From Candidatus Latescibacterota bacterium (GTDB taxonomy: Bacteria > Latescibacterota > UBA2968 > GCA-2709665): a stretch of DNA of 64,000 nt. Where the stretch lies: contig OZ250150.1 in NCBI GenBank assembly GCA_965237675.1, forward strand, positions 4,448,001-4,512,000, given 5' to 3'. This document shows, piece after piece, positions 39,365-56,840 of the stretch (within the stretch, counting starts at the first letter, position 1; each line of letters starts with the position of its first letter). A model generated the notes under the pieces. That model saw only the letters and a list, made by a program, of their open reading frames with translations, searched no databases and was not told the DNA's origin. The translations under genes were made by a program, and so were the position numbers.

Positions 39365-39952
39365 TCAACGACGACGCGATCCAACGAGACTCTTGAATTG
39401 CAGGACGCCTTTGGCCGGAGCGTTGATCTTCAGCATACGTTCCGGACTGTCGTTGGAACCGGATTTCGGTGAATTTCGTGTTTCTTTTTTGTTGATTCCG
39501 ATATTTTTGACGCTGACGAAACGTTGCTGATAGTTCTTTTTTTCTAGGAATCTCGACTCTTGCCAGAATTCTTGACCGATGGCGCGGCAGTAGGCAACAA
39601 CGCACTGTGCCCCTCTCAGTTGATTCTCGATTTCACTGACCAAACCTGTATTTCCGCGTTTCATCTCTATATATACAATCCAGTTTACATTCTTGTCACT
39701 AGCGATAAGCACATAATCGGCCCGTTTGCATTCTCCCTTGGTGTCTCTGAAAATCCCATCTGGAGGCGGAAAAGCATCAGCTTTGAATGCGAAAATTTCG
39801 TCCGGCAAGTTGCAAATCTTTAGGGAATATGCCGGTTGGTGTCGGTTGCCAGGTTCCTGAAGAACGATAACCTCTTTTCCATATTGATACTCGACCGAGG
39901 CCATTGTCTCATTCCGGATCAAATCTCGCAAAATATCAATGTCGCAAATCAT
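39365..39952 (-). CDS. Hypothetical protein with PD-(D/E)xK-like nuclease motif
   Basis: KRADYVLI...YIEMK...NQL; coupled by ATGA overlap to the upstream ATPase. Confidence 0.6.
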   Translation of the reverse strand: MICDIDILRDLIRNETMASVEYQYGKEVIVLQEPGNRHQPAYSLKICNLPDEIFAFKADAFPPPDGIFRDTKGECKRADYVLIASDKNVNWIVYIEMKRGNTGLVSEIENQLRGAQCVVAYCRAIGQEFWQESRFLEKKNYQQRFVSVKNIGINKKETRNSPKSGSNDSPERMLKINAPAKGVLQFKSLVGSRRR

Positions 39953-41343
39953 TCATCTCCACCCCACACAATGGCTTCTTGAATCTCGTTCATTTTACTA
40001 ATGGTATCGTCGAAACTACCTGCCCCGATGCCCAATTCCGGGTCAATCGCCGCAGGCACGAGCGTGGGTCGTCGACTTCTTCTGGTGTTATTCCCTAACA
40101 TCATTAACGCTTTTTCGGCTATGTAAACCCTGATCTTATCAGCAGACAACAACTCTTCGCTCTTGTAGCCTTCGCGGTGTGCGATTTCCTTCAGATACGG
40201 CTTGTCCTGATTCAACATAATCAGGGTATTGAGTTCTTTCACGATATAGTCGCTGTGCGTCGTCACGAAAACTCGGATACCCATATTCACCAGCCGAGCA
40301 AAGATCCGAGCGATGCGCCGCTGATTCTCCGGATGCAGGTTCAATTCCGGCTCATCCACCATCAACAAATCACCCGGTTTGGCAACATGGCGCAAATAAA
40401 AACCAATGTCCAATAGGGATCGTACCGCACTGGAACTCTCGTCCATTGTCAGCTTGATTTGTTTGCGTGCCGGCCTGAAATAAATCGTGTCATCACTCCC
40501 CGCGACGTATTCGCCTCCGATGATGTCGGCGAAATCTTCCAAGATTTGCGGATGTTTCTTGGCAAGAAAGCTGTCCTCTTTGGCGACGTCTTCAAGTTGT
40601 CGAATAAAATCGACATTGACTTCCACCGGCAATGGATAGTCCTGGTACGACTTGAATAACAGTTCTAATGGATTGACCTTTTGATCCGACCGAATCATCT
40701 CTTTCAGCAAACGGTTACGTGCAAAATTCAGTTCCTTGCGAAAAATTGCCGCGCCTGTACGCTCCGTGCTAGCGATAAATGTCTGGGGGAAAAACCGGTC
40801 GAAGAGTAATTCTACAATCCCGTCTGATATTACTTCCTCAATCATACTCTCGGGCAACGCGCTCCTCCGCTTCTCCATCAAAAGAGAAATGACTATGTCG
40901 TTTTCCCCTTCAGCCTTTGACAATAAAAGAAGATCGTCTTCGGCAGATCTTATTGTTCGCTTATACGTACGACTCTTTATTGAAGATATCGTCTCCGTTT
41001 CTATGGACACCTGAAATTTAGTGTCTTTAAAACGGCCGGGTTTCGAAGCAAAGATTTTCGGAAGACGGCTCGTGTATTCTATGCATCCCTGTTCAAGAAT
41101 GTGTTTCGCTTCCTTTGCATAGGACTCGACATTCAGCCGCGTTACGCCGTCCCTAAGTAGCTCCTGAACGGTACTGCTGTTAACCGTAGCGTGGAGTAGG
41201 CGTTCCCAACGCCACAAAAAGCCGAATAGGGCATACGTCGCGTAGGTCTTTCCCGTATTGTTGCTGCCACAAATCAGCGTCAACTCGCCCAGTTCGAATT
41301 CCGCCTTTTTGAGTACGCCCAAATTCTCCAACTCTATTTTCAT
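39949..41343 (-). CDS. ABC-type (AAA_15/AAA_21-like) ATPase
   Basis: Walker A GSNNTGKT, SSSAV signature, Walker B VDEPELNLHP, H-loop TTHSDY. Confidence 0.88.
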   Translation of the reverse strand: MKIELENLGVLKKAEFELGELTLICGSNNTGKTYATYALFGFLWRWERLLHATVNSSTVQELLRDGVTRLNVESYAKEAKHILEQGCIEYTSRLPKIFASKPGRFKDTKFQVSIETETISSIKSRTYKRTIRSAEDDLLLLSKAEGENDIVISLLMEKRRSALPESMIEEVISDGIVELLFDRFFPQTFIASTERTGAAIFRKELNFARNRLLKEMIRSDQKVNPLELLFKSYQDYPLPVEVNVDFIRQLEDVAKEDSFLAKKHPQILEDFADIIGGEYVAGSDDTIYFRPARKQIKLTMDESSSAVRSLLDIGFYLRHVAKPGDLLMVDEPELNLHPENQRRIARIFARLVNMGIRVFVTTHSDYIVKELNTLIMLNQDKPYLKEIAHREGYKSEELLSADKIRVYIAEKALMMLGNNTRRSRRPTLVPAAIDPELGIGAGSFDDTISKMNEIQEAIVWGGDE

Positions 41344-41510
41344 GATATACCTCGATTGTTGGCTTTCCTCCTACGTTCCGGAGTAGATTACAACGTCCGA
41401 CCCGCCTCCCCTTCAGGCACCTCCGCGTTAGACGAGGCAACCGTCGTGGGCTGCCGAATCCCCGTTTACACGCCTTGAGTTGTCTTTACCAATGTCAATC
41501 ACGCACAGAA

Positions 41511-44500
41511 TTACCGTTCTTCGGATCCGCTTCTTCTCAATTCTTGATCCGCCTGCTGCTCATATGTCTCCGCTATCTTGCGCAATGCAGTCGCAAATCG
41601 TGAATAACCTCTCTCCTCGAGGGCTTCTGCCTTTTCTCGGTTCAACTGCGCCAACTCTCGCTCCTCTTTGCCGGCGGTAAACCAATAGGCACCTCGCTGA
41701 TTTACGATCTCAGTTGTAAATCCGGATCGCATATCTGCCGCATTTCGTGCGTTCAAGGCGGACGCGACCGCATCATGTATCCACAAGCCATCAGGGTCAG
41801 GTGGCGCGTGTGTCAATACATGGCCGATTTGTATCTGCGCAACTTGACGGTGGCCAGTCGTTTCCGTAATTCGAATCGCCTCCTCTAACCATATCCTAAA
41901 AATAACTGCATCAAAGGAGTCATCGGGTAGTTTGCCCGGACAGATTTCCCATTCGGCTAAGAGCCTGTAGGCATTCTGGGCGAGGTTTTTTCTTTCTTCA
42001 CTGATTCCTGAAATGTTTTCGTCCTCATTTATTGAAGGAAAAATGAGTGCGACGACTTCAGCGAAAAACGCAGGATCTGAGGCGAGCCGTCTTTCAAGTG
42101 TAACTGGTGATCCTGACGAGAACCGGTCAAGCAACGGAAGTAAGTTCCATTCAATCTTAAATAGAGCGTCCGATTCGACGTTAGAAGAATTCTGTAATCG
42201 TTTAATTACGTCGACGGTCCTATTGGGATCCAGTCGATTCGCCACGTCGGGCGTCTCCAGTACACCAAGAAGTGCTCGAACCGCAAGGTCTTCCTTAAAC
42301 CTCGTTTCGTCTTGTATCGTGCGGTAGACACAGAGGACAGCTTCCGGAGCACGCCCAAATTCGATCAGTTTCTCAATGGCTAAATCCAGGTCTCGATCTG
42401 GCCCAAACGGGTTTACGCCAACCTTCATCCAATAGAGCCTTTCATTCTCATCTCCGAGGTGGTCTCTTACTCGACTCCAAACGCCCTCATTGAACGGAAG
42501 CAGAATCAGGAATGCGCTTTTCTGAATGTGATCCCAATCGTACCTGAGCACCTGATCAACCCAAGCCCAACTCAATCTCCAGAATCGCCCAAAGACGAAC
42601 CCGGATACAAACCGTTTCTCGATTTCGTCTTCAGCATTAAGCAGTGAAGGAAGAATCACTGCCTCGATTTCTTCACTTCCGATACTACCCAGAGCATATC
42701 CAACTTCATAAGGTAAGGCAACATTCTGAGCGAAAGTTAAAACAGCACGCACACCTCCTGTGTCAAGAATCGCCTGCACAGCATTCTGACGAGCCTTGTC
42801 AAGGAGCTTTTGCTGTTCTTCGTAATTACCCTTCTCATCGAAATATTCTAAACCTCGACCACTGAAAAGGTAACGATTTTTCAGATCTGGGCTCTCGGGA
42901 GCCAAGGAGTTTGCCACAATCTCAATCTTAGCGACTCTATCTTCGGGCATTGCCCACTTAGCGTCTGCGAATTTTCGGTGTTGGCAGACTGTATCTCTCA
43001 ACCTCTCCCAGAGCTCAAGGCGCTCAGCCTGAGGCAAAGCCAGGACCTCGTCCGAAGCCAAATGTTCCAGAACGTTCGCTTGCGCTTTCCTGGGCAAATC
43101 GGACAGACGCTTAATCAACTCCTCAAGTTTCTCAGTGCTTGTCTTTGCGAGTACAACTGCCAACTCTGTGTAAATCGTTATCTGTTTCCAATATTCTGAA
43201 TTCAAGACACTGTCATTCCAATCTCTCGGAATGTAATTCCGCCAAGTTGGTCGGTGGCACCCGCTGGTAGAGCCGTGATCGTGCGGCAATAGACTTAGAA
43301 TTAACTCCCAACCTACTTTCGGCTGTTCTCGGAGTACGGTTTGAACAGCCGCTTTCCGCTTTTCAACCGAGGCACATGTTTGCACATGCCATGGTAAGAA
43401 GATGTCTACGAGGGAGTTCGATGGACGGTTTGCCCAGTTTCCTCCGGGATCAATCGAGGCAAGGTCTGATAGAATCACAGCTACGCGGGAGAGGAAATCT
43501 GGATTCCACGCAAGAGTTTCCAGTGCCCACAATAGGCCGCTCATGTAGTTCCAACCTCCAACTCCTCCACTATCCTCCTGAGCGAAAAGCTCGTGAAATG
43601 GCGATTGGCCCAAGTCTTCTAACGCCGACTCAACCGCATCGAGAAACTCGCCGGGAGCCGCTTCGGCAAGGAGCGGCAACAACGAATCCAAACTCGCCCA
43701 CCGGTCCCAGTTCGCATTATCCAAAAGTCCTCGGACTGTGAGAACTGCCGTAAATTCCGGTTTGTTAAGAGAACATGAGGAAAGTGTTTTCGGGCGACTT
43801 CCGATTAGAGCGAGTGTTTCTGCCAAACCTTCACGAAGAAAACGGGAATGTCTAAGTTGCTTACCGTGAATGCTTGCCGCGAATCGTTCCTCTTTCGGCA
43901 AGTCAAACTTTGGATCTCTTTCTCCAAGAACTGAAATGGCTGCCTCTTGGAGCCGATCTAGATCCTCATCCGTTATTCTATTGCCCAACGCGCTCCACGC
44001 TTCACCCCGTGCGACAAATCGCCATCTTTCATCGAGTTGAGTTAGGGGAGAGTCCGAGCGAAGCGCGTCAGGTCTGACTGTCTCGATCCACTCCCCATAT
44101 CCTTTTCCCAACAACCTCTCCAAAGCAGCCTGGTCTGACGGGCTGTTACCGTCCCATTTACCGACAAGCCCTGCTTGTGCAATGCGCCTCGCATTCTCCC
44201 AGGTTGCATAAGGCGGCAGCGTTCCAAGTCCCTGCAAGTTCCTGCGTATTGCGGAAATTCGATCCCCTCCAATTCCGGCTAACTCTTTAGAACGAACCTC
44301 TGTGAAACCTGCCTCTTTTAGGATTGTCTCTATACGGTGTTGGGACGGACTTCGTAATTTGACTATTTCGTGACTTTCCGCTGCCCACGCACCAAAAAGA
44401 GGAACGACCACCGCATGTTCTCTCTGCGTGGCGATTGTTTGGAGATCAGCTCGCTCCTCCGTCTCCAAACCGAGCTTGACATCAGCGACAAAAACGTGTG

Positions 44501-45326
44501 ATCTACGTGTGTGCACGACCGAACGCCAAGCATCCTCTTCGGAAACAATCAAGCATCGGTGAGCGTAGTTTTGCGCGGTCTCCTCATCAAGTGTCTCGAT
44601 ATAGGCTGCGACAAAGTCGGCGACATCGTTTGGGCTTTCTGCAAACAGAAGCAGCCTTTTCGAATTACCTTCGAACAGCGCCTGTAGAGCATCGCAGGCA
44701 TTACTACGTCCTTCAGTGAATAGCTTTGCTGGAAGTGGAGGGTCGGACGGTACTGTTGGAGTAGCGATGATATCCCAATGCTCTCGCGGAGTCGAAAGCC
44801 CGCCTAAGCTGCACAACAAACCGATTTTTTTTGCCATCCACCGACCTATAGCTGGAAACTCCCGCAACCAGTCGGCGAGTTTAACACCGTCAATAATTCG
44901 GATATCTTTCCAGCCCTTACCTCTTTTGGTTTCCAGCCACTTTGCTTGCTTCGGCTCATCCCATCCACCGGCACCGGCGGAACGGGGAGTCACAAAAATG
45001 AACGATGCCTCGGCCCGATCAGTTTCCGAGAGAGTGTCCGTCCTCTTCTTCAAGTCAGCTGTAGCTTTATTCTGTGGGTTTGCCCCAGTGCCGATTTCCC
45101 AGTACGATCTACCTTCCGGAACAAATTCGAGAAACGCTGCTTCAGCTTCAACGATCCCGTCCCAACCTGGTTGATTAACGTCGTCTCCATAGGGAATTCG
45201 ACACACCGAGGCGTTTGTAGACTGTCTTACAAGTAAGTAAAGCAACTCTGGAACTACGTCTTGGCTTTCTATAGTATCGGCATATCGTTCAAGATCACTG
45301 GAATGAACGATGTGGGTATGGTCCAT
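41511..45326 (-). CDS. 1271-aa putative defence protein: REase-like N-terminus, degenerate NTPase-like region, helical C-terminus
   Basis: PGWDG...WEIG N-terminal motif; GR...L...ESP region; long Leu/Trp-rich helical tail. Confidence 0.6.
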   Translation of the reverse strand: MDHTHIVHSSDLERYADTIESQDVVPELLYLLVRQSTNASVCRIPYGDDVNQPGWDGIVEAEAAFLEFVPEGRSYWEIGTGANPQNKATADLKKRTDTLSETDRAEASFIFVTPRSAGAGGWDEPKQAKWLETKRGKGWKDIRIIDGVKLADWLREFPAIGRWMAKKIGLLCSLGGLSTPREHWDIIATPTVPSDPPLPAKLFTEGRSNACDALQALFEGNSKRLLLFAESPNDVADFVAAYIETLDEETAQNYAHRCLIVSEEDAWRSVVHTRRSHVFVADVKLGLETEERADLQTIATQREHAVVVPLFGAWAAESHEIVKLRSPSQHRIETILKEAGFTEVRSKELAGIGGDRISAIRRNLQGLGTLPPYATWENARRIAQAGLVGKWDGNSPSDQAALERLLGKGYGEWIETVRPDALRSDSPLTQLDERWRFVARGEAWSALGNRITDEDLDRLQEAAISVLGERDPKFDLPKEERFAASIHGKQLRHSRFLREGLAETLALIGSRPKTLSSCSLNKPEFTAVLTVRGLLDNANWDRWASLDSLLPLLAEAAPGEFLDAVESALEDLGQSPFHELFAQEDSGGVGGWNYMSGLLWALETLAWNPDFLSRVAVILSDLASIDPGGNWANRPSNSLVDIFLPWHVQTCASVEKRKAAVQTVLREQPKVGWELILSLLPHDHGSTSGCHRPTWRNYIPRDWNDSVLNSEYWKQITIYTELAVVLAKTSTEKLEELIKRLSDLPRKAQANVLEHLASDEVLALPQAERLELWERLRDTVCQHRKFADAKWAMPEDRVAKIEIVANSLAPESPDLKNRYLFSGRGLEYFDEKGNYEEQQKLLDKARQNAVQAILDTGGVRAVLTFAQNVALPYEVGYALGSIGSEEIEAVILPSLLNAEDEIEKRFVSGFVFGRFWRLSWAWVDQVLRYDWDHIQKSAFLILLPFNEGVWSRVRDHLGDENERLYWMKVGVNPFGPDRDLDLAIEKLIEFGRAPEAVLCVYRTIQDETRFKEDLAVRALLGVLETPDVANRLDPNRTVDVIKRLQNSSNVESDALFKIEWNLLPLLDRFSSGSPVTLERRLASDPAFFAEVVALIFPSINEDENISGISEERKNLAQNAYRLLAEWEICPGKLPDDSFDAVIFRIWLEEAIRITETTGHRQVAQIQIGHVLTHAPPDPDGLWIHDAVASALNARNAADMRSGFTTEIVNQRGAYWFTAGKEERELAQLNREKAEALEERGYSRFATALRKIAETYEQQADQELRRSGSEER

Positions 45327-48300
45327 ATCGCGACCCTATTTGGTTTTTGTTTCGGTTTGGTTAAGAGAGCTTGATGCAAATCGCAATGGAGGCGCCCTAA
45401 GTGACGATCGCTCGGCTAAGTAGCACCTCAGAACGGGATTTCACTTACTCCATTGCGGCCCTAGCCCTTGCTGCTGAGTCAGACCCTGTGGCCCAGGTAC
45501 AAGCCCTTGTCCCTCACTTTTTGTTGGGCGGCAAGCAACGGACGCGGGTTTCTTTTACTACCTTTGGAAGGCGATCAGCTATTAGGTGGGTTCGCTATAT
45601 GGCGAGATGTGCTGTGAGGCTAATCGTCTATTTGCGAGAGTTTAGAATATAAGCCCACACGAATCCACCGGCAATCTCTGCACGAACGCAGGCTTGTTGG
45701 TTACCGTCGGTCGGTTTGTTTCCTGCCATCGTGCAAAGGACTTCTTGATTCCTCCCGAGAGACGATTTCTTCACATTTGGCCATTGTATCTTGGACTGTT
45801 TGCCGTCGAAGCAATTGCTCTTTCCGAGCGAGAACTCTCCGCACGCAATTGTGAGCATCAGAATTATCAACAGCGTGACGGGCGTACGCAACATTGCGTG
45901 TGGCGAAGACTGAATCTGTATAATCCTGTTAATCGGTCTCGTTCGCCCTTAAAATAGTTTCCACCGCGGCGATCTCTTCAGCCGTCAGCCCGTACAGTGC
46001 ATAGACCAAGCGATCTATCTGCACTTCCTGCTCGCTGGTGTCAGCACCGGTGTTGACACGTTTGGCGTCGAGGATATTGTCAACGATGTTCGTAATTTGG
46101 AACTGATTTTCACGTGATACTATTGGTATCGGAAACTGCTTCACATAGTTATTGATCCAACGGCTTGTTCCCATCCCACTTGTTTCTGCTGTAACGTATA
46201 GGTAAAACCGAATTGTGCTTGAATTTAGAACTCCAAGAAGGAATTTCGAATCTATACCTGATGGTGGGATCAAAAAATACGCCGAGTTCAGAAGGTATAT
46301 CTCCTCATTGCAAAGCGCGAATCGACCCAAGTCTGTTAGTTCAATCCATACGATCTTTTCTTTCTTGAAATCGTCATAAAATGAGCATGCACGCAAGTTT
46401 GTCCAGTGTTTCCCCCTTGCACCGCGACTTCTAAACTTGCCTCCAAACGACTCGAAATGCGAGTATATTTCGGGATAATCCCTCCTTACATTCACACCAT
46501 TCCTAGCCAGCAGTATATGCTGTCCCGATGAAATGTAGCTGTAGCGATGAATATCCCGACCTCTAAGAATCGGCTTTATTATGGCAGTGTTAACTGGATT
46601 CTTCTCGCAGAGTTCGCGTTTCTTTTCTTCATCTATTATAAATGCTTCATTGCTACCCGTAGCAATACCAAGTCTGATTTTCGTCCTGAGCTGTTCGAGG
46701 GTCTTTCCGGTGGACGCAAGTTTTCTTTGAAGCACAATTAGCTCTGGCCTTGTGAGGGTCCAAGGATTGGCATCCAAATACGCTTGGGGATAATCAAAAC
46801 CGTTGCTTTCGACAAAGTCTTCAATTGGAATTCCTTTTGTGAGTGGTGAGTTAACAACAACGCAAAGCTCATCATACATCTGGGATGAATTACAAGAGAC
46901 GATTATCGCTACATTTACAATCGCGCTCGCGAAAACCTGTGAGTCTTCAATACTTAATACTCTAAGTAAGGCATTTCTCTTGCTCAGCAATTCGCGGATG
47001 GGGGCTCCGTATTCTGCCCTCAAATACGAATTGGAAGTAATAAAGCTCAATACGCCTGCATTGTTTTGCAACCTCAGTGCCTTCTCAATGAAGTAGCAGT
47101 ACAAGTCGGCAAATGGCTGGTACGATAGATAACTATTCCTAACAATGGATTTCTGATGTTTTGAGATTTTGTCGTGACTAACATAAGGAGGGTTTCCAAT
47201 TACGACGTCAAAACCACCCGTTTTTCCAAACATATACTCGGCATCGAACCAATGCGCAACGGTATTCTGGTCATAAGGATCCCATTGCGCAATATTGAGG
47301 GCTGCATCAGTAGGAAGTCCAAGATTTCGCAGCTCCGTTGCCAATTGTGTCCGCAGGATTCTATCCTTTTCCTTACATTCAAGTTTTCGCTGCCGTGTAG
47401 AGGCGTGAAAATGCTGTTCGCGGTTTTCATTCAGTTCACGTTCCAAATCCTGCGCTCTCCTGTTTTTCAACATTCGCTCACCCTCGAGACCGATGAGCGT
47501 GTTCGCCACAACAAAACGTGTCTCCAGATTCGGCAAGGGTTTAATGCCCAAATTCTCCGCTGTCTCGTCCGATTCCTGTTCAATGGCCAAGGAGATGAAG
47601 AAGCGCAATCTTGCGATCTGGCAGGCTACGGGCTGAATATCCACGCCGAAAATACTGTTTTGTATGAGGTAGAGTTTGCGTCCGAAGTCCCCTGAATATC
47701 GCTGGAAGGTTTCGCTGATTTCCAACATCTCGGCGTTGCGTTCCCGCTGGTTTCGTGTTTCAAACGCTGCGTCCACTCTCGCTCTGGCGCGTTCCTTTTG
47801 TAGGGCTTGCCAGTGCTCATTGTCCGGGTCAAGCCGCTGTAACGCAAGGATAAGCTTGTGCAAGATGCCCATTGGAAACGCGCCGGAACCAACCGCAGGA
47901 TCAAGCACCTTGAGATTGGCAATCGCCCGAATGATGCTTTCCTTCTCGGGTTTATCAAACAAGACATCGACGTCATTGAATTCGTCCGCGTAATCTAGCA
48001 ACCAGCGCAAACTGGTATCAAAGTCATCGGCGATCCCATTCTTGGGCAGACACTTCTGCTTCAGAGTTGCCACCAGCGCCTCATCCACCATATAGTCAAC
48101 GACGACACGCGGCGTGTAATATGAGCCGGTTTGCTTTCGTACTGTGTCACGAGTTTCAGGGTTGTAGGCAGCCAGCAGGTTTTCAAAAACCTTGCCCAGC
48201 AGTTCAGGATCCAATGCGACTTCTTGCTCGACAGGCGTGTTTTCCTCGACCGTGAACTTGTAGTGATTGAGTAGAGGAAACAGTCCATATTCATCATCGA

Positions 48301-49450
48301 AGAACAGCGCGTCAGGGACGTTCAATTGCCGCCATGCGTCACGACGCGCTTCTGCGGCGCGGGGCCCCTCACTTGGGTCGGGGTCGCTGAACATGTCGAT
48401 GCGTTTGCCACCCGCGCTTCTCGACTCTTCGTCGTCGAGGCAGTCAAACAGCCCACCGTTGATGAACGGCGTCTGCTTCATCAAGCCTTCAAATCGGTCC
48501 AAATCGCGAATGAGTGATTTGTAGCGATAACGTGAAAAGACCCTGTGGTTGGGCTCCCTTCGGGTACTGAATCCGCGTGCTCCCATCTCGGTGTTGAGGG
48601 TAGCGAAAAAGAGATTCTGCAAGACAGCGCGGTAGTAGTCCGAGCCGCCGAAGTTGCTCAGCAACTCTTCCATTTCGGCCTTTACGTACCATTCCTCCCG
48701 GACCAATCCCTTTTCCTTGATGAACCAGACGAACAGGATTCGTGTTATCAAACGGATTACCTGTTGTTCCGCAGACACGGTCGAGGGGAATTTCGCATCC
48801 TCAGCAGCCCTCTTGAACCATTCGAAGAGTTCCCCGTAGAACCGTCGGTTGAGTTCCTCGGTGTCCAGTTTGTCCAGCCAGGCGGCCAGCAGGCCGTCGA
48901 AATTGTGTGGCTTGCTGTGGAGATCCATCCATCTAGCGCACTCGGCCAGCGACAGTTCAGCCAATATGTCCAAATGGGCGCGGTGCGGATTTTCCGGGTC
49001 AACTTCCCGTATCAGCGACACTTTGCCCAGTACATCGCGCTCCGGATCGCGCTTGTGCTCGCGACGGTGAACGAAGCCCACGGTTAGCAAGTTGCCCGTG
49101 GTTTTGAATAGAACGACCGTAGGTTGGATCAGACGCTTGTTGATCTCGCGTGTGAACTGTGCATACTGGCCGCGAGGGTAACCCTTGCCGTTCAGTTCTA
49201 CTGCGAAGAAGACAAAACTCTGCTGACGCCCCTTGTCGAACGCAGTGGCATTAAAACCAAACGTCGGCTGGCTACTGGCCGCGATTTCGTCGCTTGTAAC
49301 CTGGAATATCACCTTCACGGATTGCGTCTGCTCGCGGAATTCCAGTTCTGACTTCGTGTTTTCGTTTGGAACGGGAAATTCGCGAATAAACTCATCCACG
49401 CTTCCCGAAAGTTCCTGAGTGCGCCCGCTTTGATATCCCAGGACCTCTAG

Positions 49451-51138
49451 CCCGATTAATTCATGAATCGTCAGATAGAGCATTTTAAGGAAGCAGAAAG
49501 AGCTTCCGAGTGAGACAAGAAACGAAAGCGCATGGGCTGTGACGGATTTGGCGTGTTCAAGCCGTTTGGGCGGCGCCTGCTTTGCCTCGTGACGTCAGGT
49601 TGACCTCGATGCCCGTGTCAAGCGCACAGACTTCTCCATGACCTTTGGTGGTGGTCGATGCAAATGTGAAGGCGGGGTCAGCACGTCGATGGGTTATGGA
49701 ACACCCGTTGCCAGATTATAGAGGATCTTGCCATAAAGGTGTTTGAGTGGAAACGCCGTTGGCAGATGGAACTTGATTTTAGTTTTCAACTCACAAACGC
49801 GCCCGGCGACTTTCAAGAGACGATTTTGCAGGGTATTGAACTGTGCGTTGGTCCACTTCGTGCCGCGCAATCCGATTGCAGCCAGGCTGTGCATCAGGAC
49901 ATAGGCGGCGCTGTGGAGAAAGAGACGGAAGTGATTGGCCTGGAAGGTGTGACAAGAGGTGCGATCGGAATGGAGAAAGGTCTTGTGATTTTTGATGAAG
50001 TTTTCCATCCTGCCGCGTGTGCAATAGGCGGTTTTGTAGATGAATGACGGTTGGGCGCGCTTCAGGTTGGTGACCACGAATCGGATATTGACACCTTGCG
50101 GTGTCACTTCCGCCTTGCAGACGATGCGTTGTGGACACGCCCAGGTGCCGGCCTGATAGGCCCAACAGCGATAAAGGCGCACGGTTTCTCCGGAATCGGC
50201 ATACCGCGTTTTGGCCTGGTCTATCAAGGACTGTGCCTTCCGCAGGAGTTTGGCGTTGCCGTTCTGTCCGAGGACAAAATACACATCTTCTTCCTCACAC
50301 AACACGTGCACTTCCGGACACGAAAAATGCGCATCGCCACGTAACAGGATCTCCACGTCGGGCCAGGCTTTACGCAGGTAGGCGATCACCCGTTTGAGGA
50401 TGGTGACGATCTCTTTACCCGCAGGCCGCCTGCCAGGACGCAAGACCGTCGTGATCAACTTGCCGGTTTGGCCTTCATAGATATGCAGGGGCTGGTAGCA
50501 ATAGCCATTGAAATACGCATTGAACAACGACAACTGTTGAGACCCATGCACCTTGTCTTCGGTGTCATCGATGTCCAACAGAATGGCTTCCGGCGGTTCC
50601 TCATACGAGGCGACAAACACATCCGCAAAGGCCTTGGCGATCCGATACAAATCGGTTCTGCTGATGCGGTTCTCGAACCGACTCATCGTGGGCTGACTGG
50701 CCAGGTCCGCGCCAGACAACGGCAACCGATCACAGGCCGCCTTGAAGCCGGGGTCCTCGCGTAACGTCTTGCAATCATTCGCATCCTCATACCCACAGGC
50801 CATCTGAAAGACACGTTGTTTGATCAGGTCCATCATCGAATGATGTACGTAACTTTGATGTCGATGATCGGTGAGCGCCGCAACCATCCGATGCAAAATG
50901 CCGACATTGGCCTCGACCTCACGAAGCAGCATCACCCCGACGTCGGTCGTCAGCACGCCCCCGTCGAACGTGGCTTCTACCTGCCTACCAGAAAGACTTG
51001 CGAAAGACAACCTGTGATGTTTATCTTGAACTCCCACGGTAGTTTCCTCCTGTTTCATTGTTATTAGGTTATTTGCGTAACCATAATATAATACAATGAC
51101 TTGGGTATGGAAACTACCTTTTTTGTGAATTATTCAGG
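49451..51138 (-). mobile_element. IS1380-family insertion sequence (1688 bp)
   Basis: Imperfect TIRs CCCGATTAATTCA / CCTGAATAATTCA; CTAG duplicated at 49447-49450 and 51139-51142. Confidence 0.92.
49694..51058 (-). CDS. IS1380-family DDE transposase
   Basis: FDGG...D.G, GYEDAND, LDIDDT, LRGD, RG.MEN.IK, F.AN. Confidence 0.93.
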   Translation of the reverse strand: MKQEETTVGVQDKHHRLSFASLSGRQVEATFDGGVLTTDVGVMLLREVEANVGILHRMVAALTDHRHQSYVHHSMMDLIKQRVFQMACGYEDANDCKTLREDPGFKAACDRLPLSGADLASQPTMSRFENRISRTDLYRIAKAFADVFVASYEEPPEAILLDIDDTEDKVHGSQQLSLFNAYFNGYCYQPLHIYEGQTGKLITTVLRPGRRPAGKEIVTILKRVIAYLRKAWPDVEILLRGDAHFSCPEVHVLCEEEDVYFVLGQNGNAKLLRKAQSLIDQAKTRYADSGETVRLYRCWAYQAGTWACPQRIVCKAEVTPQGVNIRFVVTNLKRAQPSFIYKTAYCTRGRMENFIKNHKTFLHSDRTSCHTFQANHFRLFLHSAAYVLMHSLAAIGLRGTKWTNAQFNTLQNRLLKVAGRVCELKTKIKFHLPTAFPLKHLYGKILYNLATGVP

Positions 51139-51288
51139 CTAGGATGTCTTTGGTCGCCTCCGGAAATTCGCTGGCAGGTATCGCAGCCAAAACAGATTGT
51201 AGGGCTTCCAGCAGATCGTCAGTGCGCTTCGCCACTTTTTCTCTGACCATGTTGCCTCGTTTCTTGTATTGATCGTCTAGGCCGCAGG

Positions 51289-52299
51289 TCACACGTCCCC
51301 GAGGTCGATTCTTTGTACGATCTTCTTCGCTAAATTCCTGAAATCGCGGCGGGCGTCGTTTGCAGCGGCGGCATGGCTGCCAATTGCTCCGTCGGCCGTG
51401 GTGAGGTGAAAAATGGGCTTCCGCGCTTCCTGAGCCATGGGCACCAGGCTCCGGTAGTGCTTGACGGTGGCGAGGGCGTGTTCTTCATCCTGTGCAGGTG
51501 TCGCGGGGTAAGGTCCTTCGTTGTCGTCGCGCAGGTTGCGGGCATACTCTTCCGGCATTCGATTAACCCACTTGTCGTACGCCTTTACGGGACGGCTCAG
51601 GCGTACGCCGTGCTGCTGCACCACGTACCCGACGGGTCGCATCTCCCCGTCAGGCAGTTGAAATTCCGGCTGCATCCAGTTGTCCCTTCGCTGCTTCCAG
51701 TCTTGCCGCCACCGATTCAACGTAGGACCGAGGTTGCGCAAGCCCTGGAGTGAAAACAAGTCGGCGCCCAGGGGAACGATAATTCGGTCGGTTGCAATCA
51801 TTGCGGAGCGATTAATCGCACCAAGATTGGGGCCAACGTCTGCAAGAATGACCGAGGCGTTCATTTGCATTGCACCACGCTGCATGACGGTAGAGAAAGC
51901 AGTCAGAATACGAAAAGGGCGGTAGAGTTCGCCGGAACCCAATGCGTTGGGCCATTCTGCGGACAGCGTGTCTTCAAATCCGGCCAGGGCCAGGTCTCCC
52001 GGTATCAGGTTCAGCGCAGGCACAATTTCCGCAAGCGATGGGTTTTTGATGTCTCCGACCATTGTCAGAGGCCGGACGCACTGCAGGATGGTCCGCCCGG
52101 AGGCATCGTTGTCTTCGTCCCACAGCTTTTCCAACTGCTCTTCATTCAGAAATGCAGCAGTGAGGTTCGCCTGCGGGTCCAGATCGCAGGCCAACACCCG
52201 ATAGCCGATGTCGGACAACATCCACGCCAGATGATAGACAAGGGAAGTTTTGCCGACACCGCCCTTGTTGTTGAAGAAAGTCAAAACGGGAACGGTCAC
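51289..52299 (-). CDS. Orphan ParA/MinD-family ATPase
   Basis: FNNKGGVGKTS, DLDPQANLT, DVGPNLGAINR; no parB nearby. Confidence 0.88.
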   Translation of the reverse strand: MTVPVLTFFNNKGGVGKTSLVYHLAWMLSDIGYRVLACDLDPQANLTAAFLNEEQLEKLWDEDNDASGRTILQCVRPLTMVGDIKNPSLAEIVPALNLIPGDLALAGFEDTLSAEWPNALGSGELYRPFRILTAFSTVMQRGAMQMNASVILADVGPNLGAINRSAMIATDRIIVPLGADLFSLQGLRNLGPTLNRWRQDWKQRRDNWMQPEFQLPDGEMRPVGYVVQQHGVRLSRPVKAYDKWVNRMPEEYARNLRDDNEGPYPATPAQDEEHALATVKHYRSLVPMAQEARKPIFHLTTADGAIGSHAAAANDARRDFRNLAKKIVQRIDLGDV

Positions 52300-53525
52300 T
52301 ATTCTGCTCCCCCCAGGTTTTGCCTGGCCTTTACCGTTACCGACACGAAACTGTCCGAAATATCGAATTCAGGTTCCGGATGTCCCGCGGCCGCCAACTG
52401 CCGTTTGGCTATTGGTATTCCTACGCCAAAACGCTGGACATATCCCAGTATTTTCATGGATTCCGCCAAGTTGGGGTTGCGGTAATCGACCAATCCCGGT
52501 TCCCCAAAATTCTCGATTGTCACCGCCCCAAATGCGCCGCCGGGGCTCAAAACCTCAATCCGGTCATTGAACCAATAGACATGAACGGGCGCATTGGTTG
52601 CCTCGTAAGCCCTGTGCATCACTGCGTTACGGGTGATCTGGTTTAACGCTTCCACGGGGTACAGCTCGGTTCGTTGTTCAATGTAGCTCGTTGTGATATC
52701 CACAGCGATTCGATTATGGGCCGTCAGTTTTTCTTCGAGACGGTGAAGAAGATCGGGAATGGCACCGCGTATCTCTTTGACATCGATTATCTCATCTGCG
52801 TATTCGTTGCCATTGATTCTGAGGAATTGCACATAAGCGCCTGGCAGGAAATCCTGCGGGTTCTTCCCAATGGCGAGGATCCCCAACACAGTCGCCGTAG
52901 GCTGGTCGGCGGCGACAATTATTTTTGTCGCAGCGAGTTGCTCATACAAGCTGCGATCGTTTGCTGCCAGTACCTCATCCGGAAACGCTGCGGTTAAGTA
53001 TTCGTTCTCAAATTGGGTCAGATTAAGGTCGGATAAGCCAGCTGTCGGGATTGGCTGGAGATCGAAAGGGCGATCCCCGTATCGCCGCTTCTCGTTGAGA
53101 ATCCTTTCATCCTGTGCCGTAGCCGTCCCACGGCGGGTGCCCGTTCGGATGTGGATAGCCCCTTTGTATCGAACCGGCGGCGAATTGGAGGGCTGCACTG
53201 TAATCAGCGCCAATTCCTTTCCCTTCAGCCTGCACTTCTCCACCGTCATCGAGGGCGGAGGCACAATGTTGCCGTCGGTTTTCATATCAGCCAACACCTG
53301 GAGCACCCGATCCGTTACACGGAAATCGTAAATCGTCCTGTCGTCTTTCACGCCCACGAAAACAAGGCTCGGACGTTCGTAGCCGGGCAAGTCATTGGCA
53401 AAAGCGCAAATGGCCTCCCTGATCCTGGTTGTAGCGTCCCCAGACAAAGTCTCCTTGAACTCGACGCGATCAGATTCGCCGGCCGCGATGATACGTACGA
53501 GATCCGCTTCGGTAAGACTTGCCAT
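52299..53525 (-). CDS. Schlafen/AlbA_2 domain plus HATPase_c-like (RecG C-terminal-like) protein
   Basis: ESDRVEFKE, ICAFAN, VGVKDD; NAVMHR.Y, RIEV.SPGG, YRNP.LA...GYVQRFGVG; alternative TTG start at 53543. Confidence 0.85.
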   Translation of the reverse strand: MASLTEADLVRIIAAGESDRVEFKETLSGDATTRIREAICAFANDLPGYERPSLVFVGVKDDRTIYDFRVTDRVLQVLADMKTDGNIVPPPSMTVEKCRLKGKELALITVQPSNSPPVRYKGAIHIRTGTRRGTATAQDERILNEKRRYGDRPFDLQPIPTAGLSDLNLTQFENEYLTAAFPDEVLAANDRSLYEQLAATKIIVAADQPTATVLGILAIGKNPQDFLPGAYVQFLRINGNEYADEIIDVKEIRGAIPDLLHRLEEKLTAHNRIAVDITTSYIEQRTELYPVEALNQITRNAVMHRAYEATNAPVHVYWFNDRIEVLSPGGAFGAVTIENFGEPGLVDYRNPNLAESMKILGYVQRFGVGIPIAKRQLAAAGHPEPEFDISDSFVSVTVKARQNLGGAE

Positions 53526-53555
53526 TGTGATTGTCCCGTCCAAATTATCACGTTG

Positions 53556-56500
53556 TCAGCTTACACGTTCAAAGATAACAAGCCAGGTTACCAACTCAAA
53601 ATCGCTGTTGCCAAGGTTCGCGGATTGAACTGGAAGCCTGGCATCCCGTCTACCCTGAATACCCAGTTGCCGAATTTGCGTCGACTTATTCGCTCTGCAA
53701 ACATGGGCAATCATCGCGTTCAGCAATTTATCGAAACGCGCCATGTCGCGGCCATTTTGGGTCTCACGGTCAAACTGATCACACAATCCTTGAATGGGCT
53801 CGGTCTCTCCTATGGCCACCGACTCAAACAACTCGAGCACCTGTCGCGCGTTTGCGCAACCGTACCGAATTTCTCCGGTGTTGCGGATGTACGCTAGGTA
53901 ATATGGATGAATCGGACTCGCCATTTTTTCCCGTCTGTCTTGTGACACGTCACGTCGCCGAAGGAAAAATACTACTCCTGGCGCTGCGGGATTGGCTCCA
54001 CCGTGGGTTACTGCATACGCACCATTGGGCGTTGCTTCCAATTCCGCCTTATTTTTTTCGAGATAGCGCAATAACTGAGCGAAGAAATAATCCAGCGTAA
54101 AATCACTTATTACGACGCCATCCGTGACTTCGTCCAGATCGAGGACTTCCTCGCGAAGTTGCTGAAGTTGCCTATCGCGAAAATTCAGTTCTCTCTGGAC
54201 CCCGCCATATGTTTCTTCGTCCAAGGGATCATCGGTCCCGCTTGCGGCCGCGTCCGCGAGTGCCATGCGAGCCTGCACACGGCTTTGCAGGCGCAGGTAG
54301 ACTTCCATATCGTCTGTAGGCCAGTAATTGATCATCCTCACTGCCTTGCTGCGGCTTCCGATTCTGTCGATTCGCCCGAAGCGCTGAATTATTCGTATTG
54401 GATTCCAGTGGATATCGTAGTTCAGGACGGTATCGCAATCCTGTAGGTTCTGACCCTCCGAGATGCAGTCGGTCGCAATCAGCAAGTCAATTTCCCCGTT
54501 GGCGGTGCCAGTACGCCCACGCGCGCGGGGCGAGAAGTTGGTGAGAATGGCGTTGAAGTTGTTGGCGCCGAACTTCGTATACGTCACGTCGCCGGCGACC
54601 AGAGCCATATTCAGCCCCAATCCTTCCACCAAGTTCCCAAAGTTTTCGTAGAGGTATACCGCTGTATCTTTGAAGGTCGTGAATATCAGAATTTTGCGAC
54701 AGACCTTGCCGTCCTTGTCGGTCGTTGGACTCTTCGCCCTGCTTCGAATGTGTTCCTTGATTTTTCTCAGCTTTCCGTCCCGCTCCGGTGAGATCCCCCT
54801 GACTTTCTGCCATGCCGAAGCAAGTGTTTCCCTATCTTTTAGTAGATCATCCCTCCAGCGTGGCAAGTCGAGTTCCCGGAGGTGAAAGGGATTGCGTGCT
54901 CGGTTGACTAGGAATTCCTCATCATCTTCGTCATCATCCGGAAGGATACCGGCTTGAGTTGGCACCGCGGGCCGGGTTTCCAAGTAACTGTCGATTTTTT
55001 CCACCAATTCGTCAATCTTCCCAACAGTCCGACCCAGCGTTTCGGAGAGTGAATGGGCGGAACTTTCCAGGCGCTTGAGAAAATTTGTCCGAATCATGCC
55101 GATGAGAAAGCGCTCACGGTCCTCCTGGTTGAATCTCAGAGTCCGTTTTTCATCCGCCAATCGTCGTTTTGCCTCTTCACTTGTAACGTATCTGGAAGGC
55201 CTGTAGACAGAAAGGGCGAATGATTCTATTTGTTCAACTAGACTGTGATAGGAGAGTCTGCCTGTCAGGTCGGTCCGCGGATGATGGTTCTCGGGTCTCA
55301 ACTGTTTCGGAAACTCGCCGATTCGATCCATTTCGTCAGCGTAAAATGCCTTGATCTGGCGTCGGGACCGGGCAATCGAAATTCCGCCTAGCAATCCGAA
55401 AAAATCTGCGCCTAGTTGTTCCAATAGCTTCGATTTGTCCTTCTTGCCGGTCAGCGCAGTCGTGTTCTCCCACGACCTAAATTCCCTTTGGGCTTGTTTC
55501 AGCAGCACATCAATATTGCCGATCCCCAAACTCTCGCGAAAAACATCCTGGCGTCCTTCAGTCATCAAGTAAATTTGATTGCGAAGGTCTATTAGTGACG
55601 TGTTAACGGGCGTCGCCGAGAGCATTAGCACCTTTGTCTGTGTACCCTCCTTTATCACCTCGTCCAGCAAACGGGAATAGCGACTGTGTCGGATATTGCC
55701 GTCTTCATCTCTACGGGACGTTGAGTCATTCCTGAAATTATGGGACTCGTCTATGACCACCATATCAAAATTGCGCCAACTGAAGTTTGCTAGATCGATT
55801 TGTCCTGATCTTCCGCCATTTCGGGTCAGATCTGTATGCGAGAGCAACGTGTATCCGAAGCGGTCATCGTCGAAGGGATTGTTCTCATGTGCGTTATAGG
55901 CCGGATACAAAGCCCAATTATCGTGCAGCTTTTTAGGGCACAATACCAGCACACGCTCATTTCTCAACTCGAAATATTTGATAACAGCAAGCGCTGTATA
56001 TGTCTTACCCAAACCCACGCTATCAGCCAAAATGCAACCGTTGTGTCTAAGCAGGCGTGTAATGACGCTCTTTACGCCGTCCTTCTGGAAGTTGTACAAC
56101 GTATTCCAGATGGCAGTATCATACAGGTGCGTGTCTTCAAACCTACGGTCTCTTGCTTCCCTTGCATCTATTTCGTCCTGGAACAGCTGATAGAGCGTCT
56201 TGTAATACACAATTTCCGGTGCATGGTCCTTGCCGATCCTGTTGAGAGCGGCGAGGACCTCCTTTTTTACATTTCGGGTGAGTTCCTTGTTTGTCCAGAG
56301 TTCGTCAAACCAGGCACGCAATTCGGCACGAATAGCCGAATCGGCGGTTGAGAGATTGATTTCGACGTTTGCCCCCTGGTCGCAGCCAAGTCCCCTTTTG
56401 GTAAAGTTGGAACTCCCGACCACCGCCGCTCCCCCACTGAACGATTCGGTGAGATGCATTTTCCCGTGAAGAAAATTGGACTTGCCGATGGAGCGAACGC

Positions 56501-56840
56501 TCACACCCCTTCTCCGCACCCATTCCTCGCACCTCCGCGCCAGGTGTTTTTGCTGCAGAACGTGATGTGGCGAGAGTCCGTCTTCCGTCAGGTCGAAGGA
56601 TTTCGGCTCTTTCTCACCCGGGTCCAATTCGCCCACGGACGCAGGATTGCCAAAAAGAAAGCGGACGTTCTTTACGCCCCACAATTCGGACTCCAAAGCC
56701 TCGTATCCGTAAATCGTGAAATACGCCGAAACGAGGCGGTACACGTCGGCATCGGATAGGTGCCTTCGCAGAAAATCGGCAACGCTGCGGTGCCGATTGT
56801 CCAGGATATGCTCGTACGTGGAGAATTCAGTTGTTTTCAT
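53556..56840 (-). CDS. PLD-nuclease/SNF2-family helicase fusion
   Basis: LHGK...GSSNFT (PLD), ADSVGLGKT, DESH, SATP, SEGQNLQ, QRFGRIDRIG. Confidence 0.9.
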   Translation of the reverse strand: MKTTEFSTYEHILDNRHRSVADFLRRHLSDADVYRLVSAYFTIYGYEALESELWGVKNVRFLFGNPASVGELDPGEKEPKSFDLTEDGLSPHHVLQQKHLARRCEEWVRRRGVSVRSIGKSNFLHGKMHLTESFSGGAAVVGSSNFTKRGLGCDQGANVEINLSTADSAIRAELRAWFDELWTNKELTRNVKKEVLAALNRIGKDHAPEIVYYKTLYQLFQDEIDAREARDRRFEDTHLYDTAIWNTLYNFQKDGVKSVITRLLRHNGCILADSVGLGKTYTALAVIKYFELRNERVLVLCPKKLHDNWALYPAYNAHENNPFDDDRFGYTLLSHTDLTRNGGRSGQIDLANFSWRNFDMVVIDESHNFRNDSTSRRDEDGNIRHSRYSRLLDEVIKEGTQTKVLMLSATPVNTSLIDLRNQIYLMTEGRQDVFRESLGIGNIDVLLKQAQREFRSWENTTALTGKKDKSKLLEQLGADFFGLLGGISIARSRRQIKAFYADEMDRIGEFPKQLRPENHHPRTDLTGRLSYHSLVEQIESFALSVYRPSRYVTSEEAKRRLADEKRTLRFNQEDRERFLIGMIRTNFLKRLESSAHSLSETLGRTVGKIDELVEKIDSYLETRPAVPTQAGILPDDDEDDEEFLVNRARNPFHLRELDLPRWRDDLLKDRETLASAWQKVRGISPERDGKLRKIKEHIRSRAKSPTTDKDGKVCRKILIFTTFKDTAVYLYENFGNLVEGLGLNMALVAGDVTYTKFGANNFNAILTNFSPRARGRTGTANGEIDLLIATDCISEGQNLQDCDTVLNYDIHWNPIRIIQRFGRIDRIGSRSKAVRMINYWPTDDMEVYLRLQSRVQARMALADAAASGTDDPLDEETYGGVQRELNFRDRQLQQLREEVLDLDEVTDGVVISDFTLDYFFAQLLRYLEKNKAELEATPNGAYAVTHGGANPAAPGVVFFLRRRDVSQDRREKMASPIHPYYLAYIRNTGEIRYGCANARQVLELFESVAIGETEPIQGLCDQFDRETQNGRDMARFDKLLNAMIAHVCRANKSTQIRQLGIQGRRDARLPVQSANLGNSDFELVTWLVIFERVS

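Follow-up and report, generated by a model that had tools for sequence, protein, structure and literature searches.

A Schlafen-GHKL nuclease gene coupled to a ParA-like ATPase gene: a probable mobile conflict module embedded in a restriction-like operon of a Latescibacterota bacterium

We analysed a window of 64,000 nucleotides (nt) from Candidatus Latescibacterota bacterium (assembly GCA_965237675.1, contig OZ250150.1, positions 4,448,001 to 4,512,000), in which a gene for a Schlafen-type nuclease fused to a GHKL-type ATP-binding domain is followed directly by a gene for a ParA-like ATPase (Table 1). We estimate at roughly 60% the probability that the two genes constitute an autonomous conflict module, mobile and not dependent on restriction-modification (RM), with the Schlafen ribonuclease (RNase) as effector and ParA as its switch. 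Such a module probably acts against phages, and control of the Schlafen RNase by ParA is supported as the most economical reading of the locus. An earlier note on this DNA, made from the sequence alone, had proposed that a ParA-regulated Schlafen RNase guards the RM genes around it. The conserved unit, its intact motifs and its setting in a defence island stand, whereas the proposed dependence on RM is not supported.

The earlier note had described the two genes as translationally coupled, and direct reading confirms that the Schlafen stop codon TAG (52301..52299) and the ParA start codon GTG (52299..52297) have one base in common (TAGTG). The stop codon of the preceding helicase gene lies 12 nt ahead of the Schlafen open reading frame (ORF), and a terminator scan found no minus-strand terminator between the genes. 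Two sigma-70-like matches on the minus strand at the junction of helicase stop and Schlafen start (53572-53530) are consensus matches only and were not counted as evidence. Because relatives align only from residue 5-10 on, the true Schlafen start may be ATG 53525 instead of TTG 53543. Domains were called with Pfam, PADLOC (2023 library) and NCBIfam scans of seven ORFs within 39949-56840. In the Schlafen protein Pfam recognizes SLFN_AlbA_2 at residues 23-137 (E 1.5e-15) and HATPase_c_4 (PF13749) at residues 318-403 (E 2.2e-17), and in ParA the AAA_31/CbiA ParA-type domains (E 1.2e-26). NCBIfam has no model for the Schlafen protein, and no named system in the PADLOC library spans the pair; the only matches there are partial, with N-terminal modules of pAgo and Aga for the Schlafen protein and PDC-M28B for the ParA P-loop.

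Evidence for a joint function comes from the distribution of the pair. A search with ParA as the only query returned 467 relatives in contigs sampled at one genome per species, and the best 80 of these loci were analysed (L numbers designate loci). Their ParA proteins are 69-93% identical to that of the window and carry at least 11 phylum labels, including Latescibacterota, Poribacteria, Chloroflexota, Nitrospirota, Rhodothermota, Binatota, Acidobacteriota, Actinomycetota and Pseudomonadota. A near-full Schlafen-GHKL gene (56-89% identity) ends at most 150 nt upstream of ParA in 68 of the 80; a C-terminal Schlafen remnant alone, with the nuclease domain gone in every case, is left in seven, and five have no Schlafen, one of them at a contig edge. 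The Schlafen stop is at most 24 nt from the ParA start in all 60 loci where the distance could be measured, with a 4-nt overlap in 28, so that the tight coupling is not a matter of chance. The adjacency that the earlier note had put forward as a check is thereby found in most relatives; the helicase and/or methylase of this operon type accompany the pair in only 21 of the 80, and no consistent RM partner emerges. Among neighbouring genes the methylase forms the largest cluster after the pair itself, with 18 loci, and the helicase the next, with 16; no other gene family recurs.

The association extends to remote relatives. Within the phylum of the window, 18 loci with divergent ParA (43-54% identity) include 11 with a full-length partner (38-48% identity); in the rest the partner is split (one), cut by the contig end (one), reduced to a remnant (one) or absent (four), and the four partnerless genes adjoin a McrB-like AAA_5 protein, a type I HsdM, an AAA_21 ATPase or a transposase. 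Longer proteins of the same kind were searched as well and include single-chain fusions of the form AlbA_2-HATPase_c_4-ParA, 721-760 amino acids (aa) in length, in about 10 clusters with 45-75% ParA identity, one fused chain being present on 7 contigs from four sources. Frameshifts at a 1- or 4-nt overlap could account for some of these chains as artefacts, and the wide spread of their divergence argues that at least some are real fusions. By adjacency, co-divergence and fusions, Schlafen and ParA form a conserved functional unit. Proteins of 676-678 aa (P0127-P0131, P0133, P0136, P0137, P0139, P0143 and P0146) also have an N-terminal ParA of the same type (44-54% identity); their C-terminal ~340 residues, without a Pfam match in P0128 and P0136, may be another fused effector.

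The range of 69-93% ParA identity across at least 11 phylum labels implies that the cassette, which moves horizontally as a unit, has been exchanged recently and widely. Many of the taxa that carry it are probably typical sponge symbionts. In a ParA tree built by a quick method from 75 rows (five of the 80 loci, in which no ParA ORF was called, were left out), the phylum labels, for which alone a shuffle control was run, require 17 changes, against a minimum of 10 and a mean of 46 for shuffled labels; linkage to the helicase or methylase requires 10 changes for 18 linked rows. The tree shows a mixing of phylum and linkage labels, and not a direction of transfer.

Conservation was assessed on alignments of 56 rows for the Schlafen protein and 52 for ParA. 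The nuclease motif reads E23-SDRV-E28-F-K30, with E28 and K30 invariant and E23 present in at least 90% of rows, in agreement with the acidic residues that the earlier note had seen retained, and it fits the Ex4(E/D)xK catalytic motif defined by Perez Taboada et al. (Nat Microbiol 2026, PMC13056530). In the GHKL domain, a predicted ATP binder, Asn306 and the Gly-rich boxes are kept. ParA preserves the motifs NNKGGVGKTS (Walker A), CDLDPQ and DVGPNLG, comprising the signature K12, Walker A K17/T18, the D39-x-D41 sensor and Walker B D154, and has an additional conserved Trp-rich segment at about residues 195-270. Both the Walker residues and the GHKL site are hence conserved across the two alignments.

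Structure models agree with these assignments. The AlphaFold2 model of the Schlafen protein has a predicted local distance difference test score (pLDDT) of 74, with a low-confidence stretch at residues 158-170, the inter-domain linker; that of ParA has a pLDDT of 81 and a predicted template modelling score of 0.86. The Schlafen model matches 3lmm (DIP2311) over its full length, the N-domains of Schlafen 11, 13, 14 and 5, the SAMD9 tRNase domain and the GHKL domains of PDK4 and HK853. A complex prediction of the pair, in which each chain served as its own alignment, gave a score of 0.07 and a mark of 0.32, values that have no bearing either way on association. The top solved matches of ParA and Schlafen-GHKL are 3pg5 (DIP2308) and 3lmm (DIP2311), respectively, both Corynebacterium diphtheriae structural-genomics entries titled uncharacterised: ParA matches 3pg5 over its full length (profile E 2e-34), and Schlafen-GHKL matches 3lmm with a Foldseek E of 5.9e-17 and, on the GHKL part, a profile E of 6.7e-9. 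Identity is about 23% to DIP2308 and about 21% to DIP2311, the latter being longer (583 aa). Since their locus-tag numbers are close, and judging by the tags alone, the two may be neighbouring genes, which suggests that crystal structures already exist for the two members of a related pair.

Could the pair be a housekeeping positioning or partition system, or a transcription regulator, with ParA placing cargo and the AlbA_2/GHKL protein acting as a DNA-binding adaptor in place of ParB? ParA has the fold and all ATPase motifs of that family, and among characterised folds Soj/ParA come closest to it; binding of nucleic acids is a property of AlbA-type domains, and the architecture is often annotated as a regulator or as RecG-like (one source name). 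With the ParABS/Soj-Spo0J system the protein shares the deviant Walker A ParA fold (Foldseek E 3e-12, TM about 0.6-0.8), but the profile match to Soj (E 4.7e-13) covers the P-loop only, the Trp-rich segment is extra and the pair has no ParB partner. The absence of parB asserted in the earlier note is borne out for the locus: the sole ParB_N match in the genome lies at C1:2.817 Mb, about 1.7 Mb away. An invariant nuclease triad, frequent decay of the partner gene and a patchy presence, in 38 of 168 genomes of the phylum, likewise argue against this reading, which we consider very improbable. Its plasmid-partition variant was tried and rejected on 72,556 plasmid records, of which 11 match ParA, all at 36% identity or less and none reaching 60%, the two inspected being solo ParA genes near RM or Abi genes. 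Beside those two distant relatives (L129, Vibrio campbellii plasmid; L130, Pantoea agglomerans plasmid; 28-36% identity, no Schlafen partner) lies either a type I RM operon together with 'mobile mystery proteins A/B' or an integrase together with an Abi-family gene. Seven phage records match ParA, at 24-29% identity.

The data establish anatomy, motif conservation, linkage, fusions and distribution; the RNA target, the direction of regulation, the trigger and phage defence itself are inferred, as follows. The first gene would encode the effector, a Schlafen-type RNase that most likely cuts tRNA, and its GHKL domain would bind ATP and drive the oligomerisation that builds the active nuclease, by analogy with SLFN-pAgo. 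The second would supply a dedicated ParA-like ATPase in fixed proportion through translational coupling, and this protein would be the switch. As an ATP-bound, DNA-associated dimer, ParA would hold the nuclease inactive; upon invasion, an altered nucleotide or DNA state of ParA would set the nuclease free, and the nuclease would stop translation, leading to abortive infection or dormancy. The cassette has landed repeatedly in operons of a phospholipase D (PLD)-SNF2 helicase and a type IIG-like methylase and would not depend on them.

The relation to this operon is the point on which the proposal of the earlier note turns. That proposal takes up the logic of PrrC, an anticodon nuclease encoded in the EcoprrI type I RM locus, a single ABC-ATPase/nuclease protein bound to its RM partner. 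The window likewise has an RNA nuclease gene embedded co-directionally in an RM operon, inviting the same backup logic, but the Schlafen fold is unrelated to PrrC, the ParA here is separate and the cassette mostly occurs without an RM operon. In a PrrC-like guard, the helicase/methylase complex would silence the nuclease and ParA would fire it when a phage inhibits the complex. Association with the operon is far above chance, as such a guard would have it: helicase and/or methylase lie within 10 kb in 21 of the best 80 loci, both in 18, and almost all are co-oriented with the pair. The pair occupies several positions, namely between helicase and methylase (window, L026, L034, L013), between them after an extra gene (L005, L010, L048), ahead of both (pair-helicase-methylase; L006, L011, L028, L044, L060) or after the methylase (L040, L050), and C-terminal helicase remnants precede it in L007, L023 and L035. 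The linked helicases are 27% to 91% identical to that of the window, the pair being 62-93% identical; this spread, together with the different positions, implies repeated capture. The same figures count against a guard in another respect, because a pair accompanied by helicases of only 27-46% identity has not co-diverged with them. Neither gene has a homologue within 10 kb in the other 59 of the 80 loci.

Coordinates compared by hand in the 168 genomes of the phylum, which are related, so that the counts are not independent, give a similar picture. Of 22 ParA copies of at least 77% identity, 12 have a helicase match no more than 4 kb away, the helicase being truncated or split in three cases; the genome of the window holds only two such helicase loci in 5.6 Mb. 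Six of the other ten are in genomes without a helicase match, and four in genomes whose helicase is more than 500 kb away; none of 23 copies at 45-64% identity lies within 100 kb of one. Conversely, helicases of at least 64% identity in 31 genomes have the pair adjacent in 12, a deletion remnant in one and no trace of it in 18, including four species of the window's own genus. The remnant (L100, G130:C1:139136-145369) sits between helicase and methylase and joins Schlafen residues 5-103 to ParA residues 231-334; in the pairless operons of the window's genus, a gene resembling the N-terminal ~230 residues of the methylase begins ~95 nt past the helicase. In 74 loci the genes that directly flank the pair are mostly of housekeeping type (histidyl-tRNA synthetase 7, beta-propeller 5, UbiA 4, GMC oxidoreductase 3, ATP sulfurylase 2), with few of RM type (SNF2 in 4 of 74 upstream, Eco57I in 6 of 74 downstream) and few toxin-antitoxin (TA) genes (Phd, RHH, Fic/DOC). 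Judged from gene order, the association of pair and operon is real and repeated, but facultative in both directions.

A weak hint in favour of the guard comes from a hand count, by which 9 of 12 copies linked to the helicase have an intact Schlafen gene versus 4 of 10 unlinked ones, and a backup role is already in print for other RM-embedded ParA lineages and effectors (bioRxiv 10.64898/2026.10.19.760177). Besides the many loci without the operon and the many operons without the pair, the window itself weighs on the other side, the pair being intact there despite a methylase gene split by an insertion sequence (IS). As a general function, guarding restriction is a minority possibility, conceivable but unsupported; all that speaks for the idea is that the pair has become embedded, repeatedly though facultatively, in a single type of operon, and we regard it as unlikely. 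Ranking after it, and unlikely too, is a portable 'second line' plugged into PLD-SNF2/type IIG-like restriction operons: a nucleoid-bound ParA would read the state of the helicase-nuclease's DNA and, upon failure or inhibition of restriction, free a Schlafen tRNase gated by ATP, and the swapped linker-GHKL described below would be an arms-race surface against phage inhibitors. If that were true, a ParA ATPase would be the trigger of a tRNA-cutting abortive-infection response coupled to restriction.

Returning to the autonomous module, we find that its two genes decay unequally. Hand counts in the 168 related, partly draft genomes, with E-value cuts that differ between the two proteins, place ParA beside 34 of 36 Schlafen loci of the subfamily, while about 10 of 45 ParA loci lack a Schlafen partner; genes that are split, truncated or interrupted by stops number 9 of 36 for Schlafen versus 4 of 45 for ParA. 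More frequent loss of the nuclease than of ParA is expected if the nuclease is harmful without ParA, and the asymmetry fits a toxic effector held by it. The same observation suits a selfish, TA-like addiction cassette, in which the nuclease would be the toxin and ParA its inhibitor; such a cassette would persist and spread through post-segregational killing, would stabilise the islands that it enters and would have no direct part in defence against phages. Translational coupling, the patchiness of the pair inside a genus combined with its spread over many phylum labels, and its insertion among housekeeping genes and beside TA genes are all compatible with this idea. In classical type II TA systems, however, the usual gene order is antitoxin before toxin, and the antitoxin is as a rule a small, labile protein; here a 336-aa ATPase gene follows the toxin, and single-chain fusions are hard to square with differential stability. 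The family context is also one of defence, with 69.6% of prokaryotic Schlafen (pSlfn) neighbourhoods reported to lie within 10 kb of a defence gene (PMC13056530). We therefore hold an addiction cassette to be improbable, more so than the restriction-linked roles above.

Sequence divergence within the pair is distributed in blocks. The window Schlafen protein is 82-90% identical to that of L005 over residues 1-150 and 46-66% beyond; against L003 the pattern is reversed, 66-80% and then 88-96%. Between L011 and L014, ParA is 98% identical and the linker-GHKL region only 46-70%. These mosaics imply that two old linker-GHKL alleles recombine at the inter-domain linker beside a nearly constant ParA, and by this comparison the fast-changing surface is on the effector and not on ParA. 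Mean column identity is 73% for ParA versus 69% for Schlafen; ParA varies only at residues ~60-100 and in its last ~10, residues 280-320 are among its best conserved, and its alignment shows no rapidly evolving C-terminal extension.

The earlier note had considered the pair its best candidate for an undescribed system, a claim that no longer stands. Li, Burroughs and Aravind (bioRxiv 10.64898/2026.10.19.760177, Oct 2026) include an entry "ParA + Histidine Kinase fused to Schlafen RNase" in their set of ParA-effector systems, so that the pairing is already predicted in silico and the window pair is a further member of that predicted kind. In the available passages of their preprint, ParA is modelled as intercepting invader DNA, with the effector freed if interception fails, and a second-line role is proposed for other ParA lineages embedded in type I RM systems. 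Their marks are an Asn at the start of Walker A and a Gln two residues after DxD (PriB1), and a Val inside Walker A (ConB1). The window ParA has both sets (NNKGGVGKT, CDLDPQ), its gene is operonically coupled to an effector of Schlafen plus HisKinase type, and the systems share a wide, patchy distribution and a purely computational status; from these marks and the listed pairing, we infer that the window subfamily belongs to their set. It differs in that their model has fast-evolving ParA C-terminal extensions intercept the invader's DNA, whereas here ParA is strongly conserved and the effector's linker-GHKL varies, and in that a search of their text finds RM embedding only for other ParA lineages and no mention of the PLD-SNF2/type IIG-like operon.

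The effector taken alone belongs to a well-populated class. The available text of Perez Taboada et al. (PMC13056530) gives Slfn-HisKinase as the commonest pSlfn architecture (34.0% of 5,930, plus 19.2% with a helix-turn-helix, HTH), and the SLFN-pAgo preprint (bioRxiv 10.64898/2026.05.29.728809) names SLFN+GHKL proteins 'Schlatpase', counting 60,692 among 103,533 Schlafen proteins (58.6%); in the passages seen it reports ATP-driven SLFN+GHKL tetramerisation and tRNA cleavage for SLFN-pAgo, and stand-alone Schlatpase genes within RM operons of Poribacteria. The window protein shares with them an AlbA_2 domain (PF04326) bearing Ex4(E/D)xK fused to PF13749, and falls in the plain HisKinase class because it has no C-terminal HTH. 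The word ParA is absent from the SLFN-pAgo preprint in the text available, and no ParA gene appears in the passages of PMC13056530 at hand. SLFN-pAgo and the pSlfns with activity in experiments, namely the DUF262 and Ig-like fusions, each consist of one gene whose product includes the sensor, in contrast to the separate ATPase that would act here as sensor or switch.

Several points weigh against an autonomous module switched by ParA. We found no experimental study of a ParA-Schlafen pair in the literature. According to PMC13056530, four architectures including Slfn-HisKinase were picked for testing and seven constructs were expressed; protection came from two of them, a DUF262 fusion and an Ig-like fusion, the ParA content of the constructs not being evident there. 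The asymmetry of decay comes from related and partly draft genomes searched with unequal E-value cuts, and some stops may be assembly errors. A ParA 98% identical beside linker-GHKL regions of 46-70% identity is awkward for a tight, co-evolving ParA-GHKL interface, and the model of Li et al., for which the fast-evolving part is the ParA C-terminal extension, sits uneasily with a ParA that is the more conserved partner.

If ParA does control the nuclease, the consequences reach beyond this locus. Schlafen plus GHKL is the commonest bacterial Schlafen architecture, yet protection in PMC13056530 came from constructs with different architectures. For one large Slfn-GHKL subgroup the missing piece may be a dedicated ParA partner, whose conservation extends from 93% to 43% identity and which is sometimes fused to the nuclease. 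To the one-line listing of Li et al. our analysis adds the repeated, facultative embedding in one type of restriction operon, the preferential decay of the nuclease, the block-wise swapping of linker-GHKL alleles and two unpublished crystal structures that appear to represent both partners.

In the window, the pair is part of a single co-directional string of genes called on the minus strand at 39949-56840 (Table 1), a context that supports a defence island.

Table 1. Coordinates of the pair and of the genes around it, in positions of the window.
Feature	Position	Strand	Remarks
PLD (HKD)+SNF2 helicase	53556..56840	minus	1094 aa; first gene of the operon; Pfam PLDc_2, SNF2-rel_dom, Helicase_C; PADLOC C3a139 'HKD+Snf2' 6.4e-109
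Schlafen (AlbA_2) nuclease + linker + GHKL-type ATP-binding domain (HATPase_c_4), 'Schlatpase'	52299..53543	minus	414 aa from TTG 53543
ParA-like deviant-Walker-A ATPase	51289..52299	minus	336 aa, GTG start; Pfam and NCBIfam matches
5' end of methyltransferase gene, cut off	51143..51250	minus	36 codons; frame analysis after in-silico IS removal
IS1380-family insertion sequence	49451..51138	minus	1.69 kb; transposase 51058..49694; NCBIfam transpos_IS1380 1.3e-114; Pfam DDE_Tnp_1_4 1.7e-156
Eco57I/TaqI_C type IIG-like N6-adenine methyltransferase, body	45929..49446	minus	Pfam Eco57I 5.8e-36, TaqI_C, N6_Mtase; PADLOC REase_MTase_IIG 1.5e-107
1271-aa ORF	41511-45326	minus	between methylase and PD-T4-4_A-like ATPase
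PD-T4-4_A/PDC-M47A ATPase	39949-41343	minus	1.2e-218

The tight packing between helicase and methyltransferase reported in the earlier note describes the operon as it once was. On the helicase side it persists, and on the other side a recently inserted IS1380-family element now separates ParA from the methyltransferase and interrupts the methylase gene after about codon 36. The element is flanked by a CTAG target duplication at 49447-49450 and 51139-51142 (the general target is NTAG, with a 4-nt duplication) and has 13 further copies in the genome at 99.8% identity or more over about 1.7 kb; its ends were set by comparing these copies, a search for inverted repeats being ambiguous by itself. 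In-silico removal of the element and one copy of the duplication yields one open frame from ATG 51250, 38 nt past the ParA stop, into the methylase (49446 downward), which implies that the original operon consisted of helicase, Schlafen, ParA and methylase in close packing. The methylase ORF as called (1184 aa, 49483..45929) takes its first 12 codons from the IS. Since transposase and methylase have the same orientation, transcription of the methylase by read-out from the IS is conceivable. When contigs of four sequencing runs were compared with 48600-53600, exact contigs from two runs, both belonging to one study, covered the pair, and another study covered it in part. Among the pieces listed, none spans either IS junction with 31 or more letters to each side, and none shows the joint without the IS.

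Named defence systems were considered for the flanking genes and rejected. For DISARM, DrmD reaches 137.7 bits against a cut-off of 610, no DUF1998/DrmA-type protein is a best match among the seven ORFs scanned, and the helicase has only a partial DrmA match (1.5e-16, residues 782-835); the scores for BREX and Hma likewise fall far short of the cut-offs of their models.

The helicase/methylase operons of relatives contain further genes. In many of them the gene after the helicase (L010:6950-8596, L005:6954-8351, L011:14321-16027, L082-L098) has N-terminal ~230 residues like the methylase N-terminus (46-55% identity), and that of L010 carries as its C-terminal half a complete sigma-70 factor (regions 1.2-4), an unusual fusion in a restriction-like operon. 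In L005, L013, L048 and L060 the methylase has downstream of it an inverted fragment with 31-38% identity to its C-terminal specificity region (residues ~930-1175) and, after that, a tyrosine recombinase; the arrangement, absent from the window, looks like an invertible specificity cassette for phase-variable target recognition. AIPR (abortive-infection) and FRG+TPR proteins recur in or next to these operons (L035:454-2199, L048:6558-8291, L004, L010, L040:6644-8098 and others). A counterpart of the PD-T4-4_A/PDC-M47A ATPase, 74% identical, also lies a few genes past the same operon in L003, L042 and L048, where a ~195-aa gene without Pfam match comes after it. The 1271-aa ORF of the window is an orphan large protein, with no match in Pfam, PADLOC or NCBIfam and no homologue among the best 80 related loci.

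Elsewhere in the genome of the window, C1 has four more Schlafen-GHKL paralogues (22-27% identity; ~862 kb, ~1.80 Mb, ~4.25 Mb and ~4.56 Mb), none beside a ParA of the same type, and at ~3.99 Mb a second pair of SNF2 helicase (28%) and methylase (28%). The IS1380 element appears to have undergone a recent burst, with 14 copies of at least 99.8% identity alongside older ones at 76-98%, and one more copy is itself broken in two (C1:4698338-4701465).

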